In this document: piece by piece, positions 22,126-55,184 of the stretch
Position numbering within the stretch: position 1 is the stretch's first letter
Layout: the number at the start of each line of letters is the position of its first letter
NCBI GenBank assembly: GCA_964435835.1
Contig: CAYSZX010000002.1
Coordinates: 8,282-72,281 of the forward strand
DNA from: an uncultured Candidatus Saccharibacteria bacterium
GTDB lineage: Bacteria; Patescibacteriota; Minisyncoccia; Minisyncoccales; JANBVM01
Length of the DNA stretch: 64,000 nt
Direction: 5' to 3'
Program-made: the position numbers and the translations under genes
The notes under the pieces: generated by a model
Told to the model about the DNA's origin: nothing
The model's database searches: none
What the model saw: the letters and a program-made list of their open reading frames with translations, nothing else

Positions 22126-23121
22126 TTAATTTTTTCCTACCAGTTGTCCACAAGCGGCAGAAATTTTACTTCCTAAACGGTATCTCTGAGTGACAGTTAC
22201 TTCTTCTTGTTCTAAAATATCTTTGAATTTTTCAATTCTTTTTTTGGAAGAAGCTTCAAATTTCGTTTCGGTAGAATTATAAGGAATTAAATTAACAAAA
22301 CAAAGACGATTTTTAACAATCTTTAATAATTGGTGAGCATGTTTGTCTTGATCATTAACTCCTTTTATCATTATATATTCAAACATTACTCTTCGTCGAG
22401 TCTTCTTTATATATTTATCTATTATTTTCAGCAGTTTATCAAGTGGATATTTCTTATTTATAGGCATTAATTTAGATCTTAATTTATTATTTGGAGCATT
22501 TAAAGAAATAGCCAAGTTAATTTGTTTATCTTCCTTCATTAGTTTTTTTATTCCTTCTGTTATTCCGGCCGTAGAAATAGAAAAAGACCTAATACCTAAA
22601 TTAAAACCATCTTTATTATTTAAAATATCTATCGCCCTCATAACGTTATCATAATTTAAAAATGGCTCCCCCATTCCCATAAAAACAATATTAGTTACTT
22701 TTTCATTTTCTTTTTTTAGATAGCGGGCAAAGAATAAAACTTGTTCTACTATTTCAGAAAAAGTTAGGTCTCTTTTAAAACCTAATTGACCTGTTGCACA
22801 AAAAGAACAATTTAAAGAACAACCAACTTGAGAAGAAACACAAATAGTATTTCTTTCATTGTATCGCATTAATACAGTTTCTATTTTTAAGTCATCTTCT
22901 AAAGTAATAAGAGCTTTTACAGCATTTTCATTTTTGGAAACTTTAGTTTTTACCTTTATTGAAAGGGGAAATTTTTTACTTAATTCTTTTCTTAATTCTA
23001 AAGGTAAAGTAGTAGCTTTTTCCCAGCTTTCAATTAAGTCTTGAAAGATCCACTTTTTAACCTGTTTTATTCTGTAATCTGGTTTATCTTCAAGAAACTT
23101 TTTTATTTTTTCAATATTCAT
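22126..23121 (-). CDS. rlmN: 23S rRNA/tRNA A2503/A37 C2-methyltransferase (radical SAM)
   Basis: CSLNCSFCATG cluster, GMGEPFLNYD, and C-terminal AACGQL. Confidence 0.9.
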   Translation of the reverse strand: MNIEKIKKFLEDKPDYRIKQVKKWIFQDLIESWEKATTLPLELRKELSKKFPLSIKVKTKVSKNENAVKALITLEDDLKIETVLMRYNERNTICVSSQVGCSLNCSFCATGQLGFKRDLTFSEIVEQVLFFARYLKKENEKVTNIVFMGMGEPFLNYDNVMRAIDILNNKDGFNLGIRSFSISTAGITEGIKKLMKEDKQINLAISLNAPNNKLRSKLMPINKKYPLDKLLKIIDKYIKKTRRRVMFEYIMIKGVNDQDKHAHQLLKIVKNRLCFVNLIPYNSTETKFEASSKKRIEKFKDILEQEEVTVTQRYRLGSKISAACGQLVGKN

Positions 23122-23156
23122 TTTTCTATTATTTCAAAAATCTTATTTCTTCTTTT
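23098..23156. repeat. 59-bp direct repeat, copy A (native DUF167 3' end plus rlmN start)
   Basis: 58/59 identical to 28086-28144 at an offset of 4988 bp. The single mismatch is 23125 t versus 28113 c. Confidence 0.95.
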
Positions 23157-23381: not shown

Positions 23382-23777
23382 ATTAAAATAGGGCTTTTTA
23401 CAAATTTAAGAACCTCCTGTTTTACTAACCGCTACAATGGAACTTATCGAAGAGAAGATTTATCTCCAAAGAAGCTTCATGCTTTTGATTTATGTTGTGC
23501 TCAAAATGAAATTATCCATTACCTGATTGATCCTGGAAAACCAGCTCAAAATGGAACTGTTGAAAGATCTCACCGGGAAGACCAAGAGAAATTTTATGAG
23601 AAAAATCGTTTTAAAAATTTAAAAAGTTTGGAAATAAAGTTAAGATTATGGAACAAGGAATACAATAATTTAGAGCATTGTGGTCTTAATGGAAAAACAC
23701 CTCTTGAATTTCTTGAGAATTATGAGAAAAAGAAAGAGAAAATTAAATTAAAAAAACCGACAAATGTCCTTGCCTAA
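23382..23777 (+). pseudogene. C-terminal fragment of a DDE (rve/integrase-core, IS481/IS3-like) transposase
   Basis: The frame is open from 23382 with no start codon: ...FTNRYNGTYRRE...IIHYLIDPGKPAQNGTVERSHREDQEKFY...LRLWNKEYNNLEHCGLNGKTPLEFL*. This retains the NG.VER catalytic-E block and the YN..RPH..L.G.TP tail, but the N-terminal HTH and the first two D residues are missing. Confidence 0.7.
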
Positions 23778-24003
23778 AACAAATGACTTTAATGATGATT
23801 GTAAGACCTATGATTTTTCTCATTTTGGAAGGGAAAATTATGAACAAGTTTTTAATCGTTATCTGAAGGTTTGGGAAGATTGTTACCGTAAGGATCTATT
23901 ATTGATAGGGCATGGTAAAGGATTAGGTTCTCTTTTAGCAGAACTTCAAGAAGGAGCTAGACTTAAAAGAGGCGAATATCGATTTTTATATTATCCGAAA
24001 TAG
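23764..24003 (+). CDS. small ORF, possibly a remnant (histidine-phosphatase-like C-terminal fragment?)
   Basis: 79 aa. DLLLIGHGKGLGSLLAEL loosely resembles the second-His region (V.HG..irall) of PGAM/SixA-type phosphatases. It overlaps the transposase remnant's end. Confidence 0.25.
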   Translation: MSLPKTNDFNDDCKTYDFSHFGRENYEQVFNRYLKVWEDCYRKDLLLIGHGKGLGSLLAELQEGARLKRGEYRFLYYPK

Positions 24004-24256: not shown

Positions 24257-24844
24257 TTAAATAGATTTAGAAGGATCAACTTTTTCCTTTTTAATTTCTT
24301 TAATATCTCCTTTTTTAAGATATTTTTTAATCTTATTGTATTCACTTAATACTTTTTCTTTACCTAATTCCTTTTTAAACCAATTATTTTTATCAAAGTT
24401 ATAAATTTTATATGTGACAAGGAATGTCTTTATTGACTTCGGAAAATGTTTTTTAACAGTCATAAGAGCTCTTCGTGAATGGTAATGTTTTACAAAAATC
24501 ATTATTTTTTTAATTTGCTCGAAGCCTATTTTATTCTCTATTGTTCTTTTTGAAAATAAAACATTTTCTAAAGTATTCGTTGCCCTTTCTTCTAAATAGA
24601 TATCCTTGTTTTTTATACCTAACTTAATTAAATATTTTTTAATCCTTTTTGCTTCATTTTTTTCTGTAACACGATTAGTTCCTCCAGTTACTAATATTTT
24701 AGGCACTAATTTTTCTTTGTATAGTCTATAGACCTTATCAAAGATTTTTAGGTGTCGTGTTCCAAAAATAATTAGTAAATCAACTTTTTGTGGATTTGAT
24801 TTTAAAAAAATATAATCTGTGATTTCTCTGATATCTTCTTTCAT
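24257..24844 (-). CDS. DUF218 (YdcF/ElyC/SanA-like) domain protein
   Basis: LLIIFGT...ILVTGG...EAKRIKKYLIKLGI...IYLEERATNTLENV fits the DUF218 core pattern (GG...sEA...l...Gv....i..E..s.nT.eN). Confidence 0.7.
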   Translation of the reverse strand: MKEDIREITDYIFLKSNPQKVDLLIIFGTRHLKIFDKVYRLYKEKLVPKILVTGGTNRVTEKNEAKRIKKYLIKLGIKNKDIYLEERATNTLENVLFSKRTIENKIGFEQIKKIMIFVKHYHSRRALMTVKKHFPKSIKTFLVTYKIYNFDKNNWFKKELGKEKVLSEYNKIKKYLKKGDIKEIKKEKVDPSKSI

Positions 24845-24870
24845 ATAAGTAGTTTTTAATAGTATAGCAT

Positions 24871-24902
24871 AAAAAAAATGGCATAATTTTTAAATTTATG
24901 CC
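24871..24902 (-). terminator. intrinsic terminator after the radical SAM gene
   Basis: On the minus strand GGCAUAA-9 nt-UUAUGCC is followed by A and then U8. It lies 19 nt downstream of the stop at 24921. Confidence 0.7.
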
Positions 24903-24920
24903 TTTTTATTAAGTTTTTTA

Positions 24921-26588
24921 TTAATCTTCTTTCCATCTATACTTTTCAGGAAAAGTTTGATATTTCTTTATTGTCAGAATAAGATAAATTTCTTTAGTCA
25001 GTTTATCTACTGATGTAAAATCGGATGCGGAAAATGATTTACTTTGTGGAAGATGATCTTGTATAAGGTTTTTCAATTTGCCTAGTTTACTTTTTATTTC
25101 AGTAATTTTATTTGATATGTCTTGACGATTGAATTCGTTGCTCTTCTCCCATCTGATTAAAGATTTTAGCAAATCAACCTCTATATCAAATATTAATTGG
25201 TCTAGAGAGTAAAACACTCGTCGTTTATTGAAAGAAGTTGCTTTTTTAAGTTTCCAAATTTCTGCCTGAAATAATTTCTTAAATGTATCTATCCATTCTG
25301 CATACACTGTTTTTAGAGCCATGTAAATTCGAGTAATGTTAGGTGTTACAAAATATTCATGGTAGGCTTCAAATGGATTTTTTGCGACTAATTTATGTTC
25401 ATCTTCAAGAATTTGTTGGAGAGGAATACCATCAAAGATTCTCAGTGTTTTAGATAGAGTTGGAGTAAAACTGTATTTTTCTAGAAAAGCAATATCTTGC
25501 TCTAAACTTTCTATTGTTGTATAGGGATTGAAAATCAAAAACCCTATCACTAAATCAATGTTATTTTCCTGTAGAATATTAATAGTGTAACAGATTCTTT
25601 TCAGTGTCTCCCCCTTCCGTAAAAGTTGGAGAATTTTGGGGTTAGCGCTTTCAACTCCTATAAGAATTCTTTCGAAGCCTGCTTTTTTCATCAGTGTTGC
25701 TACCTGTGAATTAATGTCGTTTGCTCTACAAAAGGCCATAAGATGTATATCGTCAAGTTGATGATGGATTATCTCTTTACATAAATTTATAACATGTTCT
25801 TGGCCTTTTTTGCCTGGTCCGAAAATATTTGCATCATTGAACTTAAAGACTTTAACTTTGTAGCTGTTTCTTAAATATTTTATTTCATCTACTACGTTTG
25901 TCGGATCTCTAGCACGCCATTTAGGTCCAATTGACATTTTTTCAAAAGAAGCGTTAGTACAAAAGGTACAATTTCCATAACATCCTCTGCTACTTAAAAT
26001 GGTAGCGTAGTTAGTTTTTTCTAAGCATATAGGTAGAAAATCTCGCACTGGCCATGGTAATAGGTCGAGGTCTGGTTTTGTAGTGGGTGGGTTAAAAATA
26101 ATATCTCCCTTTTTCTTAAAAGCAATACCTTTTATGTCTTGCCAATTAGAAAATGAAATGACCGCTTTTACAAGATTATTAAAAGTGATTTCACCTTCGC
26201 CCATTACAATAGAGTTCATTCTTGGTAGTCTTTCAAGGATGGTAGAAGCGCTTAAAGTCGCAGTAATTCCTCCTCCACAAATATGTGCATTCACTTCCTG
26301 TTTTTCTAGCATTTCTATTAAAAGCTTAGTCGATGGTAAAGCCCTTTGAAGAATAGAAAGACCAATAACAGAAGGAGAATAGGAAAGAATTTTACTTAAG
26401 GCTTCTTTTATGGTTAGACACAACAAACCTGCATCGATTATTTTTACTGAAAAACCATTTTGTCTTAATACTGCAGCTATATACATTAAACCCATTGGTT
26501 CCTTAGGATTATAGTCTGGAATTCGACCAGATTGATACATCGGAGGTATTATTAGTAATACATCTACTTTTTTAGTCATTAATCTCAC
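24921..26588 (-). CDS. B12-binding-domain radical SAM protein (class-B-like)
   Basis: N-terminal Rossmann-like B12-binding region (VDVLLIIPP...GLMYIAAVLRQNGFSVKIID...VIGLS), radical SAM cluster SSRGCYGNCTFC, and a ~170-aa helical C-terminal extension. The likely start is ATG 26579, giving an 8-nt overlap with the upstream stop. Confidence 0.85.
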   Translation of the reverse strand: MRLMTKKVDVLLIIPPMYQSGRIPDYNPKEPMGLMYIAAVLRQNGFSVKIIDAGLLCLTIKEALSKILSYSPSVIGLSILQRALPSTKLLIEMLEKQEVNAHICGGGITATLSASTILERLPRMNSIVMGEGEITFNNLVKAVISFSNWQDIKGIAFKKKGDIIFNPPTTKPDLDLLPWPVRDFLPICLEKTNYATILSSRGCYGNCTFCTNASFEKMSIGPKWRARDPTNVVDEIKYLRNSYKVKVFKFNDANIFGPGKKGQEHVINLCKEIIHHQLDDIHLMAFCRANDINSQVATLMKKAGFERILIGVESANPKILQLLRKGETLKRICYTINILQENNIDLVIGFLIFNPYTTIESLEQDIAFLEKYSFTPTLSKTLRIFDGIPLQQILEDEHKLVAKNPFEAYHEYFVTPNITRIYMALKTVYAEWIDTFKKLFQAEIWKLKKATSFNKRRVFYSLDQLIFDIEVDLLKSLIRWEKSNEFNRQDISNKITEIKSKLGKLKNLIQDHLPQSKSFSASDFTSVDKLTKEIYLILTIKKYQTFPEKYRWKED

Positions 26589-27858
26589 TCTCTCTATTAT
26601 TTTTTCTATTTATTTTAATTCCTAAATTTGAAAGTCTAAGATCTAATCTTTCGTAACCGCGATCAATATGATAAATATTGTCAATAATAGTTTTTCCTTT
26701 TGCAGCAAGACCTGCTAATAACAGAGCTGCACCTGCTTGAATATTATGTGCTTTAACATAATTTCCTTTAAGGAAAGGGACTCCTCTTATTATTATTTTA
26801 TCTGACCTTCTTGTGATGTCTGCTCCAAGGCAATTTAATCCTTCAATGTGAGAGAAGCGGTTTTCAAAGATTTTCTCTGTAACAATGCTTGTGCCCTGTG
26901 CTAATGACAAAAGCGTTGTTATTTGAGGTTGAAAATCTGTAGGAAAACCAGGATAAGGTCCAGTAATAATATTGGCTGCTTGGAAAAAAGGGCTTGGTTT
27001 CACCAGCAATTTATTGTCGCTCAAATTTTCTATTTGGACTCCGATCTTTGCCAGTTTGTATCTTGTTATACTTTTATTATCCTGGAAAGGACTTTCCATT
27101 ATTAACTTTCCTCCTGTGATAGCGGTAGCGGCTATAAAAAATTCGGTTTCGATTCGCGATGGTATTGCCACATGTTTTGTAGCTGATAGTTTCTTGACAC
27201 CCTTAATTTTAATAAAGGGGCTACCCGCACCTTTGATTTTTGCTCCCATAGAATTCAAAAAGAGAGCAAGGTCAATAATTTCTGGTTCACACGCAGCATT
27301 AATTAATGTTGTAGTTCCTTTTGCTAAACACGCAGCCAGCATAATGTTTTCGGTTCCGGTGTGACTAGGAAAATCGAGATAATATTTAGTCCCAATTAGG
27401 GATTTGCTTTCAAGCTGTATTATTTCTTTTTCTTGTAGAATATTAGCTCCTAATTCTCTTAATCCATCCAGATGTATATTTATTCTTCGATTACCAATTT
27501 TGCAACCTCCCGGAAATGTTGTTTTTATCTTTCCGAAACGCGACAACACAGGACCAAGTAATAAAACAGATCCTCGCATTCTTTGAACTAAATCAGTCGA
27601 TGGGTTATGCTTTGTCATATTTTCACAATTTATTCTTAATTTTCGGTTTCTAGGATGGTATTTAACACTAGCACCTAATCTAGATAATATATCAGAAAAG
27701 ACTCTAATATCTTTTATGTCTGGTACATTGTAAATAATTGTTTCTCCTTCTTGTGCTAAGATCGCTCCAGCCATAAGAGGTAGAATTCCATTTTTTGCTC
27801 CCAATATCTTAACTTTTCCTCTAATTTTTTCTCTTCCTTGAATTACAAATCTATTCAT
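26572..27858 (-). CDS. MurA-family enolpyruvyl transferase (UDP-GlcNAc 1-carboxyvinyltransferase-like)
   Basis: GAKNG (Lys22 equivalent), RMRGS, PGGCKIGNRR (Cys115/Arg120 equivalents), and an EPSP/MurA two-domain length. The preferred start is ATG 27858, preceded by AGGTGA 5 nt upstream; the ORF-track start at 27867 is a GTG inside that SD. Confidence 0.8.
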   Translation of the reverse strand: MNRFVIQGREKIRGKVKILGAKNGILPLMAGAILAQEGETIIYNVPDIKDIRVFSDILSRLGASVKYHPRNRKLRINCENMTKHNPSTDLVQRMRGSVLLLGPVLSRFGKIKTTFPGGCKIGNRRINIHLDGLRELGANILQEKEIIQLESKSLIGTKYYLDFPSHTGTENIMLAACLAKGTTTLINAACEPEIIDLALFLNSMGAKIKGAGSPFIKIKGVKKLSATKHVAIPSRIETEFFIAATAITGGKLIMESPFQDNKSITRYKLAKIGVQIENLSDNKLLVKPSPFFQAANIITGPYPGFPTDFQPQITTLLSLAQGTSIVTEKIFENRFSHIEGLNCLGADITRRSDKIIIRGVPFLKGNYVKAHNIQAGAALLLAGLAAKGKTIIDNIYHIDRGYERLDLRLSNLGIKINRKNNRESEIND

Positions 27859-27892
27859 AATAATCACCTATTCTGTTTTTAATTTTAAAAGT

Positions 27893-27931
27893 TCTTAATT
27901 TGATTTAAACACGATTCAAATTAAGAGTCAA
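27893..27931 (-). promoter_or_regulatory. candidate promoter of the MurA-like/rSAM cassette with an overlapping 11-bp perfect inverted repeat
   Basis: On the minus strand: TTGACT (27931-27926), 17-nt spacer, TTAAAT (27908-27903). The inverted repeat TCTTAATTTGA (27893-27903) / TCAAATTAAGA (27916-27926) has a 12-nt spacer and straddles the -10 and start region. Confidence 0.35.
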
Positions 27932-28085: not shown

Positions 28086-28144
28086 CTTTTTTATTTTTTC
28101 AATATTCATTTTCCTATTATTTCAAAAATCTTATTTCTTCTTTT
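28086..28144. repeat. 59-bp direct repeat, copy B (displaced copy supplying the last 13 codons and stop of the NMNAT-like ORF)
   Basis: 58/59 identical to 23098-23156. It contains a duplicated rlmN start (ATGAATATTGAAAAAATAAAAAAG) that is not followed by rlmN. Confidence 0.95.
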
Positions 28145-48930: not shown

Positions 48931-51129
48931 ATGAAAAAGTATTTTATTCAAACTTATGGTTGCCAACAAAACGAATCTGATTCTGAACGAATAGCTTCTG
49001 TTTTAAAAAAGATGAATTACAAGTCTGCTTCATCAAAAAATGAAGCTGATTTAATTATAGTAAACGCTTGTTCTATAAGAGAATCAGCAATTGATAGAAT
49101 GAGAGGATTAGCTTCCAAATTAAAGAAATTAAAAGAAAAAAATTCAAAAATTAAGACAATTTTAACGGGTTGCTTACTTAAAAAATCAAAAAAAGAATTT
49201 AAAAATTACTTTGATTTTATTTTACCTATAAAAACTCTTCAAAATTGGTCTGAAATATTAAAAAAAGAAAAAGCCTACCCTTTCTTTAATCCAAGGGATA
49301 AGAAGTTTAATAAAGAGTTTGGTGTGGACTATTTTGATATTAAGCCCAATAGAGAAAATAAATATTCCGCTTTAATCTCTATTTCTTCTGGTTGTAATAA
49401 TTTTTGCTCTTATTGTGTAGTTCCCCGCACCCGTGGACCTTTAATCTGTAGAGAGCATGAAAAAATAATTAATGAAGCTAAAAAAGCAATTAAAAAAGGA
49501 GTCAAAGAAATATGGCTTCTTGGAGAAAATGTTAATGATTACAAATCTCCAAGCAATAAATCAATTAATTTTGCTAAATTGTTAGAAAAAATAGATACCC
49601 TTCTAGGAAATTTCTGGATTAGATTTACTAGTCCGCACCCTAAAAACTTTTCACAGGAATTAATAGATCAACTTGCTAAAACTAAAAAGTTAGCTAAATA
49701 TATTCATGTTCCTGTTCAGTCTGGCAACAATCAAATTTTAAAAAGAATGAGTAGGTCTTATACTATCCAGAACTATAAAAAAATTATTAAGGAAATAAGA
49801 GAAAAAATACCAGACGTAGCTATTTCAACCGATATTATTGTTGGTTTTCCTGGCGAAACAAAAGAACAATTCAAAGACACTTTAAAATTATTCAAAGAAT
49901 TGAAATTTGATATGGCTTATATAGCAGAATATTCTGAAAGAAACGAAACAAAAGCAGCAGAAATGGAAAATAACATTTCTTTTCAAGAGAAAAAAAGAAG
50001 AAAGAAAAAACTTACTAGAATTTTAAAAGAGACTGCTTTAGAGAACAATAAGAAATATGTTGGTAAAATAGTTAAAGTTTTAATTGATAAAGAAACTAAA
50101 GAGTTTTTATATGGAAAAACTGAAAAATACAAGACAGTTAAAATTCAAAAAGATAAAATCACTGCTTTGGGAAGTTTTGCCAAAGTAAAAATAAAGAAAG
50201 CTCTTCCTTGGGGATTAAAAGGAGAAAAGGTTCCTCCTAAATTAGTAGTTGTTTTAGGGCCCACAGCTTCTGGAAAAACTGAAACAAGTATTAAATTAGC
50301 TCAAAAATTTAACGGAGAAATTGTTTCAGCTGATTCTAAACAGGTTTATAAGGAAGTATCTATTGGAACAGCTAAACCAACCGAAAAAGAAAGAAAAGCT
50401 GTTAAACATCATTTAATTGACTTTATTTCTCTGGAGAAAGACTTTAATGTGGCTAAGTATAAAAAACTTGCCCTAAAGGCTATTAAGAAGGTCTTAAAGA
50501 AAGAAAAACAGCCCTTTTTAGTCGGAGGTTCTGCTCTTTACATTAAATCAGTAGTCAAAAATTTTTCTTTAACCGAAACTCCACCCAACAAGAAGCTGCG
50601 AAAGAAACTTAGTAATAAAAGTGTAAAAGAGCTTTTTGAAATTTACAAGAAATTAGATCCAAAAGGAGCTAAAAAAATAGCAAAAGAAAATAAAAGAAGA
50701 TTAATAAGAGCTATAGAGGTTTGCGAGGAAAGCGGTAAATCTTTTTGGCAACAAAGAAAAAAGAAAAATCCTTTATTTGATGTTTTTAAAATTGGTATTA
50801 AACCTAATAAGAAAAAACTAAAAGAAAGAATAACCAAAAGGACAGAAAAAATGTTTAAACAAGGATTAGAAAAAGAAGCCATTAAAATAATTAAAAAAAT
50901 GGGTCCGTGCCCTTCTCTCAAAATAATTGGATATCAAGAATGGTTCCCTTTTTATCCTGATTTTTCTATTACTGAAAAAGACAGAGAAAAAGTAAAAGAA
51001 AAAATCATCCTTCATACTTTACAATTTAGTAAAGATCAGATGACTTGGTACAAAAAAGATAAGGAAATTAACTGGGTGCAAAATTACAAAGAAGCAAAAG
51101 AATTAATCCAAAAATTTTTAAGAAATTAA
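48931..51129 (+). CDS. miaB-miaA: fusion protein: MiaB (tRNA-i6A37 methylthiotransferase) N-terminal ~430 aa plus MiaA (tRNA dimethylallyltransferase) C-terminal ~300 aa
   Basis: MiaB part: YGCQQNESDSE (UPF0004), radical SAM CNNFCSYC, and a TRAM domain (VGKIVKVLID...). MiaA part: VVLGPTASGKT, SADSKQVYKEVSIGTAKP, HHLIDF. It is a single uninterrupted 732-codon ORF. Confidence 0.85.
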   Translation: MKKYFIQTYGCQQNESDSERIASVLKKMNYKSASSKNEADLIIVNACSIRESAIDRMRGLASKLKKLKEKNSKIKTILTGCLLKKSKKEFKNYFDFILPIKTLQNWSEILKKEKAYPFFNPRDKKFNKEFGVDYFDIKPNRENKYSALISISSGCNNFCSYCVVPRTRGPLICREHEKIINEAKKAIKKGVKEIWLLGENVNDYKSPSNKSINFAKLLEKIDTLLGNFWIRFTSPHPKNFSQELIDQLAKTKKLAKYIHVPVQSGNNQILKRMSRSYTIQNYKKIIKEIREKIPDVAISTDIIVGFPGETKEQFKDTLKLFKELKFDMAYIAEYSERNETKAAEMENNISFQEKKRRKKKLTRILKETALENNKKYVGKIVKVLIDKETKEFLYGKTEKYKTVKIQKDKITALGSFAKVKIKKALPWGLKGEKVPPKLVVVLGPTASGKTETSIKLAQKFNGEIVSADSKQVYKEVSIGTAKPTEKERKAVKHHLIDFISLEKDFNVAKYKKLALKAIKKVLKKEKQPFLVGGSALYIKSVVKNFSLTETPPNKKLRKKLSNKSVKELFEIYKKLDPKGAKKIAKENKRRLIRAIEVCEESGKSFWQQRKKKNPLFDVFKIGIKPNKKKLKERITKRTEKMFKQGLEKEAIKIIKKMGPCPSLKIIGYQEWFPFYPDFSITEKDREKVKEKIILHTLQFSKDQMTWYKKDKEINWVQNYKEAKELIQKFLRN

Positions 51130-53954: not shown

Positions 53955-55184
53955 TTATATCTTGAATGTTTTATAGTTCTCTTCCAAAACATCCAAGCAC
54001 TTCTTTAAATTTGAAGGTTTCCGCCCTCCCCATTTTGTAAAGGCAGGACAAACCGCCTCTTTTGTTTTAAATGTTTCGGGCTCCCTGCATTTCCCTTCTC
54101 TCCAGCAATTTGGACCAATGTCTTTTTTTAAAGCTGGATAATTTTCGGCCAACTTTCTAGTTAAAGGAACTCCTAGCGAACTCCTTATCTCCCATTGAGC
54201 AACTCCTTCGGATCTTGCTCTTGAAGTTTTTATTATTCCAAACCCTTTCGCATAAATCTTCGCTTTTGCCTGTTGTCCTAATAATAGAGAATAAGCAAAA
54301 CTTGCTTTCTTGTCTTTAATCAACTCTAATTGTTTCTTCTGAGCTTTTTTTGCTAACTCTCTGTATATCTCTTCTCCTTTTTTAGGAAAAGTTGGCGGAA
54401 CAACAAAAGTCCCTCTTCTAGCAATACCTTCTAGTGATTCAATATTACACAGAAATTGTCTCTGTCGCACCAGTTGAGCATACATGGATAAGCTTCCTAC
54501 AATACCCATATTTAAAGACAAAGAATGGATATCGTCAGACTGATAGTCAAGCATCGTTTCTTCAGAAATCTCCTCTTTTCCCCAAAAATTCCATTGTGAA
54601 GATTCTTTTTCTTTGGGTATCTCCAAAAAATAATCCTTTACTTCTTCTTTTATCCTCTTCCCTATTTCTTTTAATTCGCTTAGAGGCGTATTCTCTAAGG
54701 AATTCGCTATTTTCACTAAATAACGAGGAGGAGTAAAAAATATCATTCTTGTCAGTGTAGCTTCCGGAAGAACATATCGAGCATCTTGAATGGGAATACC
54801 TAAATCAAGTAATTTTTCATACCCTTTAAATAATTCACCGCCAAAATCACCAAGTTCTTCTCTGTAATTATTCGCTTTAATTAATCTTAGAGAGGCTTCA
54901 ATTCCAGCCCCAAAAATCAAATTAGGAGCGTTTACATTTCGCCAGAAATAAATAGCTGCTAATCTAGAAATATCCTCTAGAGATACGGCAAAGCCTCCGA
55001 AATCAGCTGGAATCATATGTCCATATCCTAAGACTGCTTTTACAAGCCTTTTAGACTTTTCAGGATTATCTTTGCATTCTTTTAGAATTTGGGATATGCT
55101 CCCTTTCTCTATTGGAGTCCGAGAAATTTTAGCCGCGGTTGCAGCTAAAAAAACAGGGTTTTCTTTTAACAAAGATACTTTCAT
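53955..55184 (-). CDS. ThyX-like (Thy1-fold) protein, internally duplicated and divergent
   Basis: Half 1: AAKISRT, GYGHMIPADF, ISRLAAIYFWRNVNAP, DARYVLPEATLTR. Half 2: SLSMYAQLVRQRQFLCNIES, LLLGQQAK, SEGVAQWEIRS. A Cys-rich tail follows. Neither half has an intact RHRxxS motif. Confidence 0.5.
   Translation of the reverse strand: MKVSLLKENPVFLAATAAKISRTPIEKGSISQILKECKDNPEKSKRLVKAVLGYGHMIPADFGGFAVSLEDISRLAAIYFWRNVNAPNLIFGAGIEASLRLIKANNYREELGDFGGELFKGYEKLLDLGIPIQDARYVLPEATLTRMIFFTPPRYLVKIANSLENTPLSELKEIGKRIKEEVKDYFLEIPKEKESSQWNFWGKEEISEETMLDYQSDDIHSLSLNMGIVGSLSMYAQLVRQRQFLCNIESLEGIARRGTFVVPPTFPKKGEEIYRELAKKAQKKQLELIKDKKASFAYSLLLGQQAKAKIYAKGFGIIKTSRARSEGVAQWEIRSSLGVPLTRKLAENYPALKKDIGPNCWREGKCREPETFKTKEAVCPAFTKWGGRKPSNLKKCLDVLEENYKTFKI

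Follow-up and report, generated by a model that had tools for sequence, protein, structure and literature searches.

A B12-domain radical SAM–DUF218 gene pair recurrently linked to murA in Patescibacteria, a candidate module for tailoring envelope precursors

The window analysed here, a stretch of 64,000 nucleotides (~29% G+C) of contig CAYSZX010000002.1 from an uncultured Candidatus Saccharibacteria bacterium, carries housekeeping genes typical of a Patescibacteria (Candidate Phyla Radiation, CPR) chromosome, such as those for RsmH, an FtsI-type penicillin-binding protein, MltG/YceG, several aminoacyl-tRNA synthetases, GyrB, DnaB, and Obg. Three consecutive genes on its minus strand are considered below: murA (26572-27858; ATG at 27858, stop at 26572, 428 amino acids), the gene of a B12-domain radical S-adenosylmethionine (SAM) protein, here called rSAM (24921-26579; ATG at 26579, stop at 24921, 552 amino acids), and a DUF218 gene (24257-24844; 195 amino acids, PF02698). 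The listing of open reading frames (ORFs) places the murA start at GTG 27867, 5' of ATG 27858. An 8-nt overlap (ATGACTAA, 26579-26572) joins the end of murA to the beginning of rSAM. A first-pass annotation had described this region as a self-contained cassette for an undescribed pathway. All ORFs and sequence features that it named were found in the sequence, the 8-nt overlap among them, and the genes do form a real, conserved cassette. Its conserved core is rSAM followed by DUF218, and linkage to murA recurs in different gene orders. The module is not covered by any curated family or paper, and literature searches on DUF218/YdcF with radical SAM, Patescibacteria with cobalamin, radical SAM with peptidoglycan, and CPR with MurA/MurB found nothing relevant; the rSAM-DUF218 pairing thus appears to be undescribed, and both proteins come from known superfamilies.

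Conservation of the pair and its linkage to murA

Loci were gathered from species-representative genomes (22) and metagenomes (56), with several more added via exact-protein look-ups, and collapse to 61 non-redundant Patescibacteria loci carrying rSAM. Those whose rSAM is at least 50% identical to that of the window are referred to as clade A, those at 40-49% identity as clade B. Among evaluable loci, the DUF218 gene lies co-directionally downstream of rSAM in 26/26 cases in clade A and 19/21 in clade B (45/47 together); in the most divergent clade, this holds for one locus of three. Although first regarded as an add-on behind a terminator, the DUF218 gene is the near-obligate partner of rSAM, and it is MurA that many lineages lack at this site. 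When the 489 ORFs located up to 5 kb away at the 61 loci were clustered all-against-all, few families proved to be present in at least four loci: besides DUF218, these are MurA (21 loci), histidine phosphatase (7), a SPASM radical SAM protein (4), and RlmN (4 by ORF clustering, 6 by tblastn). All remaining neighbours of the pair vary.

Linkage to murA takes distinct forms in the two clades. Of the 16 clade-A loci that can be strictly evaluated, 12 have murA directly upstream of rSAM, in most cases overlapping it by 8 nt as in the window. In clade B the order is rSAM-DUF218-murA with gaps of 8-28 nt (L019, L054, and L059) or, in L020, rSAM-histidine phosphatase-second radical SAM-DUF218-murA. 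According to a neighbour-joining tree of rSAM, the upstream position of murA is ancestral to clade A, where the window forms the deepest branch and losses are sporadic, and the downstream position is basal in clade B; in a sister clade, murA is absent and RlmN lies nearby. The adjacency of murA and rSAM, which the first-pass annotation had proposed to follow across genomes, therefore recurs in many of them and in more than one gene order, rather than being confined to the window.

The variable neighbours include envelope and sugar-nucleotide functions, i.e., MreB, two GT4 proteins, and a second MurA in L008, Amidase_2/SpoIID in L069, an NDP-sugar nucleotidyltransferase in L014, MurJ in L090, and Peptidase_M23 in L023. 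Translation-related genes are found as well: RlmN lies 0.5-4 kb from the pair in six non-redundant loci including the window, a TGT gene is directly upstream in Kazan, and a TsaB-like gene is directly downstream in L069. These surroundings bear on the main rival explanation, synteny without a functional link, in which murA would be a housekeeping gene and the pair, active in RNA or protein modification or in lipid tailoring, would have been inherited beside it in two lineages. Such a scenario is in line with the orthodox nature of the MurA, whose clade is also found without the cassette, with the absence of murA from many loci, and with the neighbouring RlmN, TGT, and TsaB-like genes; in addition, proteins are the substrates of the class-B radical SAM enzymes MgmA and Mmp10, the former of which ranks second among the profile matches of rSAM. 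It nevertheless appears somewhat unlikely, as murA is the only widely recurring non-core gene (21/61 loci) and its contact with the pair is operonic (8-nt overlap or 8-28-nt gaps), occurs in three gene orders, and involves both sides of the pair. RlmN, on the other hand, behaves as plain synteny predicts: it is usually divergent or separated from the pair by other genes, and it is restricted to one clade and the window. The remaining neighbours are enriched in envelope functions.

In both clades, some cassettes are extended by a SPASM radical SAM gene and a histidine phosphatase gene, inserted between rSAM and DUF218 in opposite gene orders (L020, 2029-3817; L035, L040, L042, L053, and L076; domains confirmed with Pfam). 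The term self-contained thus fits the cassette only in part, as these relatives hold additional genes inside it. The phosphatase belongs to branch 1 (His_Phos_1), and its best NCBIfam match, a CobC-like family, remains under the cutoff. Neither gene is present in the window, and both occur in a minority of loci overall. A BzaD-like radical SAM protein combined with a CobC-like phosphatase, as in the anaerobic pathway to the B12 lower ligand, was considered and rejected (115 bits vs a cutoff of 450 and 124 vs 163 bits, respectively); ThiC-like and CobT genes were not found either.

MurA, transcription signals, and flanking repeats

On sequence grounds, the cassette MurA is an orthodox enzyme, the normal MurA of its lineage. 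It matches PF00275 and scores above the cutoffs of both the TIGR01072 equivalog (463.1 bits, cutoff 392.7) and NF006873 (479.8 bits, cutoff 297). Against the PDB, it reaches 250-354 bits for 32 distinct solved MurA sequences, the best being MurA/MurA1 of Firmicutes, and 102 bits for NikO (4fqd). In the alignment to E. coli MurA (the numbering reference, 419/419 identical to PDB 1uae), the equivalents of Lys22, Cys115, and Arg120, correctly recognized at first reading, are kept, and so are N23, R91, D305, R331, and R397. The protein thereby resembles MurA1/MurAA-type enzymes in its family assignment and in its catalytic and phosphoenolpyruvate-binding residues, and it differs in that its gene forms an operon with a radical SAM gene and in a few clade-wide residues. 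Its closest relatives, at 49-56% identity, constitute a Patescibacteria clade, whereas matches below ~47% identity come from other phyla. N123, T/S162-H163-T164, and Q371 are peculiar to this clade and are common to members without the cassette; four members on long contigs (L085-L088) have no rSAM or DUF218 neighbour. The sharing of these residues with cassette-free members indicates that the window MurA is the lineage's normal MurA and not a cassette-specific paralog. A paralog of that kind was also rejected because clade-B cassettes use another MurA subtype with S-V-G and R371 at the corresponding positions (30% identity to the window MurA; 384-389 bits with NF006873).

Two further candidate roles were discarded on the same comparisons. 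A specialised transferase of the NikO/PolA type is ruled out by the profile and PDB scores and by the existence of the MurA clade without the cassette. Methylation of MurA Q371 by rSAM acting as a glutamine C-methylase, by analogy with MgmA, does not fit either, as Q371 is found without the cassette and MurAs with R371 are linked to the cassette too.

The first-pass annotation had likened MurA and rSAM to NikO/PolA and NikJ/PolH, with a housekeeping murA beside unrelated genes as its conservative alternative. According to the former logic, UMP or a sugar nucleotide would receive enolpyruvate from a specialised transferase, and the radical SAM enzyme would then cyclise the product or C-methylate its enolpyruvyl group. 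The gene order, enolpyruvyl transferase followed by radical SAM enzyme, is indeed that of NikO/NikJ and PolA/PolH; the translational coupling of murA and rSAM is tight and conserved in clade A, and enolpyruvyl groups are known radical acceptors (NikJ/PolH and MqnE). The identity of both proteins makes the proposal highly improbable. The transferase passes the murA equivalog cutoff and scores 354 bits with MurA structures vs 102 bits with NikO, its clade also exists as stand-alone murA, and the very different MurA of clade-B cassettes (30% identity) leaves no dedicated transferase co-evolving with rSAM. The rSAM protein is of class-B, B12-domain architecture and is nearest to OxsB and BchE; NikJ and PolH are not known to be B12-domain enzymes. 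No other nucleoside-antibiotic gene accompanies the module.

Where D369-L370-R371 is conserved, the window MurA has N369-I370-Q371 (D369N, L370I, and R371Q), substitutions not mentioned in the first-pass annotation, and N369 and I370 are unique to it among 35 aligned MurAs. D369N and L370I are reported to raise fosfomycin minimum inhibitory concentrations in clinical E. coli (Takahata 2010, reviewed in PMC10352792). As these substitutions are tolerated in clinical E. coli, they provide no argument against MurA activity of the window protein.

More than one gene of the enolpyruvyl transferase family may occur at a locus. L008 (1993-8002) has the order murA (39% identity)-mreB-GT4-GT4-murA (51% identity)-rSAM-DUF218, with two MurA-family genes in one genome, and in L087 (6001-9331) murA is followed by a sulfotransferase gene, with a second EPSP_synthase-family gene 1 kb away on the opposite strand.

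The region upstream of murA (27859-27931, minus strand) contains a candidate promoter, TTGACT-N17-TTAAAT (27931-27903; TTGACT at 27931-27926 and TTAAAT at 27908-27903), a 10-bp inverted repeat that overlaps it (27925-27916 and 27903-27894; CTTAATTTGA and TCAAATTAAG), the AACTTTTAAAA motif, and a clear Shine-Dalgarno sequence, AGGTGA (27869-27864), 5 nt ahead of the ATG, as noted at first reading. Matches to a sigma-70-like promoter occur in this AT-rich stretch at chance frequency (25 observed vs 23.5 +/- 5.8 expected), and support for the candidate promoter therefore comes from its conservation among relatives, not from the match. Their murA leaders share a common layout, consisting of TTGACA-N17-TATAAT, a hairpin whose sequence varies between loci, a conserved G[AC]AC.TT.AC motif, and AAGGAG (L001, L003, L008, L023, L034, L036, L037, L042, L044, L045, L085, and L087). 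As the layout is independent of the cassette, being present also in cassette-free L085 and L087, the repeat that had been described as operator-like belongs to murA's own leader. In the window, where the repeat overlaps the best promoter candidate, operator and leader hairpin are indistinguishable. An Rfam search of the murA leader and of the rSAM-DUF218 spacer gave no match, and RNAalifold on a MAFFT alignment of murA leaders gave no consensus because the hairpins vary in length; these were assessed by folding each sequence individually. The region can be regarded as a candidate cis-regulatory leader.

A terminator behind the murA and rSAM ORFs had been reported, with the DUF218 gene next after it, and both are present. 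The terminator-like element (24871-24902, minus strand), located 3' of the rSAM stop (24921), is an intrinsic-terminator-like hairpin with a 7-bp stem (GGCATAA at 24902-24896 and TTATGCC at 24886-24880), a 9-nt loop, and T8 (24878-24871). A consensus terminator scan, which allows loops of 3-8 nt, misses it. Its position is conserved: homologous and much stronger GC-rich hairpins with T-runs are found in the same spacer of 19 related loci. The rSAM-DUF218 spacer of clade A measures 53-91 nt and nearly always contains a strong hairpin and a T-run, with a whole-spacer fold energy of ~-13 to -29 kcal/mol in most cases and -9 kcal/mol in the window. Directly 3' of the T-run and 16 nt ahead of the DUF218 ATG lies an extended -10-like element, TGCTATACT (24861-24869, minus strand), and TGnTA(t/a)a(a/t)T is found at the same position in 19 of 20 clade-A spacers. 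We infer that murA and rSAM form one transcription unit, with DUF218 transcribed separately or by read-through, and that TGCTATACT is a putative extended -10 promoter of DUF218 itself. In several loci, the motif is just 7-10 nt from the first in-frame ATG, taken as the DUF218 start in the place of a curated gene call. This short distance suggests a leaderless or very short-leader DUF218 mRNA. Clade B has, instead of a spacer, a 16-nt overlap of rSAM with DUF218.

A 59-nt direct repeat flanks the cassette. The upstream copy (28086-28144) covers the last 13 codons of an NMNAT-like ORF and a 9-codon remnant of the RlmN start, while the downstream copy (23098-23156) covers the junction between the 3' end of the DUF167 gene and the 5' start of RlmN. 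The copies are 58/59 identical and 4,988 bp apart, with none expected by chance, and they bracket exactly murA-rSAM-DUF218-orf79-DUF167. No copy was found in 88 related loci, which points to a recent event specific to the window genome, and the bracketed unit contains no integrase. The repeat may have arisen by integration or from a tandem duplication that later collapsed, or it may serve amplification or excision as a substrate. Within this unit, orf79 (23764-24003, plus strand; 79 amino acids) lies between DUF218 and DUF167 on the strand opposite to the cassette; it matches no Pfam family and is without a homolog in the related loci. Elsewhere in the window, a single 732-residue ORF (48931-51129, plus strand) fuses MiaB (UPF0004, Radical_SAM, and TRAM) to MiaA (IPPT). 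MiaB and MiaA are two consecutive enzymes of the ms2i6A37 tRNA modification.

The radical SAM and DUF218 proteins

The rSAM protein matches PF02310 (67 bits, cutoff 32.1) and PF04055 (63 bits, cutoff 29.5), and its C200-x3-C204-x2-C207 motif (CxxxCxxC) is invariant in 28 sequences. The predicted architecture is that of class B, i.e., an N-terminal B12-binding Rossmann domain followed by the radical SAM core. All NCBIfam scores are under the respective cutoffs. The best match is BchE (TIGR02026; 154.5 bits, cutoff 481.35), the anaerobic Mg-protoporphyrin IX monomethyl ester cyclase, aligned over residues 12-460. The likeness to BchE ends there, as the score is far under the cutoff, the C-terminal domain is family-specific, and no tetrapyrrole pathway was found in any fetched locus. 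PADLOC defence models gave a weak generic radical SAM match alone (PDC-M51A, 46 bits) and none for MurA or DUF218, so that identity as a defence system was rejected.

A word-indexed search identified 631 homologs at E<=1e-10. The best 120 of these are mostly full-length proteins of ~550 residues with 38-60% identity, and their named sources are almost always Patescibacteria. When 1.84 billion representatives were scanned exhaustively with HMMER, ~8 clusters (50% identity) were found to match rSAM over its full or near-full length with more than 390 bits. Below this boundary, scores drop to ~250 bits, and generic class-B proteins align solely over residues 1 to ~400, which indicates that the C-terminal domain (~residues 400-552), with its nearly invariant tail TFPExYRWxxD, is family-specific. 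The broader BchE-like class-B group is large, with ~20,000 representative proteins matching at E<=1e-10. Judged by these searches, rSAM constitutes a compact, sharply bounded class-B family restricted to Patescibacteria.

The rarity of this family bears on another conceivable role, replacement of the flavoenzyme MurB by the rSAM-DUF218 pair in the conversion of enolpyruvyl-UDP-GlcNAc to UDP-MurNAc under limited flavin. The pair adjoins murA in two clades, and neither murB-G nor a second murA was found within the 64-kb window, in agreement with the earlier remark that no murB or murC-G is visible there. A bypass of this kind deserves very little credence, however: with ~8 full-length clusters (50% identity) vs thousands of Patescibacteria genomes the family is accessory, the pair decays in some genomes and is often far from murA, and the FAD-dependent ThyX-like genes of the window imply that flavins are available. 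One ThyX-like ORF (53955-55184, minus strand; 409 residues) is atypical or divergent, with the match to the ThyX (Thy1) model confined to residues 117-184.

An AlphaFold (AF2) model of rSAM (pLDDT 93, pTM 0.91) has OxsB as its best structural match, with a query-based TM-score (TMq) of 0.73 across all domains and 18% identity, followed by TsrM, CysS, TokK, AprD4, and MgmA. The family profile agrees with this ranking, giving E 6.8e-38 for OxsB and 1.2e-12 for the runner-up MgmA among PDB sequences, in an alignment restricted to OxsB residues 142-498. Deoxyadenosine nucleotides are the substrates of OxsB and AlsB, which need partners, the phosphohydrolase OxsA for OxsB and a second radical SAM enzyme, AlsA, for AlsB; AlsB is 44% similar to OxsB, and the family has four domains including an N-terminal domain I (PMC13331322). 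The module resembles the cobalamin-dependent systems OxsB/OxsA (oxetanocin A) and AlsB/AlsA (albucidin) in the B12-type Rossmann domain, radical SAM barrel, and C-terminal helical bundle of its rSAM and in an apparent reliance on a small partner protein, and the phosphatase and second radical SAM protein of extended cassettes are reminiscent of OxsA and AlsA. It differs in that rSAM does not contain domain I, in that the constant partner is DUF218, with no HD-domain phosphohydrolase found, and in its linkage to murA rather than to nucleotide-reductase genes. AlbA/AlsA are annotated as biotin-synthase-like, whereas the second radical SAM protein of the module is of the SPASM type, and the parallel with extended cassettes is therefore compositional only.

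These similarities allow for secondary metabolism of the OxsB/AlsB kind, in which a common nucleotide would be converted to a nucleoside-analogue antimetabolite directed against competitors or hosts, OxsA-like processing or self-protection would fall to DUF218 and the phosphatase, and the link to murA would be protective or incidental. Among solved structures, OxsB is the nearest relative by a wide margin, and the accessory second radical SAM protein and phosphatase mirror AlsA and OxsA. The variable flanks, the occasional decay of the module, the direct repeat around the window cassette, and the fosfomycin-resistance-type substitutions in its MurA would also fit. The proposal is quite improbable all the same, given the missing N-terminal domain (OxsB residue 142 is the first to be aligned), the identity of 18%, and the lack of an HD-domain partner, a transporter, a recurring resistance gene, or a PADLOC defence-system match at the loci; moreover, the family diverged along with Patescibacteria lineages and was not patchily transferred.

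The DUF218 protein matches PF02698 with 72 bits (gathering score 27.6) and is under every NCBIfam cutoff. It has no hydrophobic N-terminal segment and is of the cytoplasmic type. Its AF2 model (pLDDT 88.6) has E. coli YdcF (3ca8) as the top Foldseek match (E 3.8e-8, TMq 0.60). YdcF is cytoplasmic and binds SAM; the module DUF218 may bind SAM as well. Compared with the DUF218 family at large, the module form is short (~185 residues, range 185-195), has no membrane anchor, and is tied to an rSAM gene; its members are 52-65% identical, and T29, E85, E93, H122, R124, and R125 are invariant in 21 of them. The periplasmic E. coli paralogs SanA and ElyC modulate the flux of peptidoglycan and enterobacterial common antigen precursors; SanA function requires a Thr/His/Glu triad, and the biochemical activity of DUF218 is not established in E. 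coli (PMC12176290). An envelope-precursor theme is common to the module DUF218 and to SanA and ElyC. Thr, His, and Glu residues are conserved in the module protein too, and its invariant T29, H122, E85, and E93 are candidate counterparts of the SanA triad.

Putative role of the module

The tentatively favoured explanation, held with slightly less than even confidence, is that rSAM and DUF218 are the two enzymes of an accessory module, regulated together with murA, which would tailor a nucleotide or nucleotide-sugar serving as an envelope precursor. It is suggested by the conservation of the core pair, the recurrent murA linkage, the envelope-related neighbours, OxsB as the nearest relative, and the background of DUF218 proteins. 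The module, specific to Patescibacteria, pairs an OxsB/BchE-like B12-domain radical SAM enzyme with a DUF218 protein of the cytoplasmic YdcF type, and comparative genomics shows that in this lineage it is attached to the ordinary murA. Translational coupling joins murA and rSAM, probably in a single transcription unit that extends to the conserved terminator, and DUF218 comes next. The radical SAM enzyme could perform a methylation or an OxsB-like rearrangement on the precursor, the leading substrate candidate being the substrate or product of MurA (UDP-GlcNAc or enolpyruvyl-UDP-GlcNAc) or a closely related UDP-sugar. DUF218, whose alpha/beta fold is of a nucleotide-binding kind and whose Thr/His/Glu-type residues are conserved, may supply, hold, or process the nucleotide-linked intermediate, while the SPASM radical SAM protein and histidine phosphatase of extended cassettes might supply further steps. 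The module would be dispensable and lie outside core peptidoglycan synthesis.

Several observations weigh against a tailoring role. The substrate is deduced from gene neighbourhood and remote homology alone, and the neighbourhood includes RlmN (6 loci), TGT, and TsaB-like genes as well. Linkage to murA is missing in the RlmN-linked sister clade, in Kazan, in Komeilibacteria, and in about half of clade B, and it could be reduced to two ancestral arrangements that were subsequently inherited. The likeness to OxsB is low (18% identity) and the BchE model scores similarly (154 bits); OxsB may be the sole solved member of a broad BchE-like group. The conserved clade-A terminator between rSAM and DUF218 implies that the two proteins are not simply co-translated subunits. 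Cobalamin binding by rSAM is putative, suggested by the B12-domain fold; AprD4, one of its structural matches, has the class-B fold and is not known to carry the cofactor, and the window contains no cobalamin uptake or processing genes. Finally, three DUF218 homologs on contigs outside the rSAM list were used as reverse starting points. DUF218 stands alone with no rSAM nearby in L089; L091 (5001-10024) has DUF218 without an intact rSAM, together with a B12-domain fragment of 228 residues at some distance and, nearby, a corrinoid adenosyltransferase of the CobA/BtuR type; and in L090 (3075-4936) rSAM is split or frameshifted beside an rve transposase, with MurJ downstream. The dependence within the pair is asymmetric, as the DUF218 subfamily also exists without an intact rSAM.

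A more specific form of the tailoring role, in which the pair would act directly on UDP-GlcNAc or enolpyruvyl-UDP-GlcNAc and yield an altered UDP-sugar, of the muramic-acid type or another, as a building block, is rather unlikely. If true, it would mean that the cell wall or surface glycan of some Patescibacteria is of distinct chemistry, and the long-sought activity of DUF218 proteins (SanA, ElyC, and YdcF) would be that of enzymes handling nucleotide- or pyrophosphate-linked envelope precursors.

The analysis corrects an attractive but unsupported analogy with nikkomycin and polyoxin biosynthesis. Very few non-methylating cobalamin-type radical SAM enzymes are understood, and a compact family with OxsB as its nearest solved relative widens this set. 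The position of DUF218 as a near-obligate neighbour of a defined enzyme offers a route to the substrate of DUF218 proteins. Patescibacteria account for a large share of bacterial diversity, with minimal genomes and mostly uncultured members, and a lineage-specific enzyme pair joined to the first committed step of peptidoglycan synthesis provides a testable lead into the envelope differences of these organisms.

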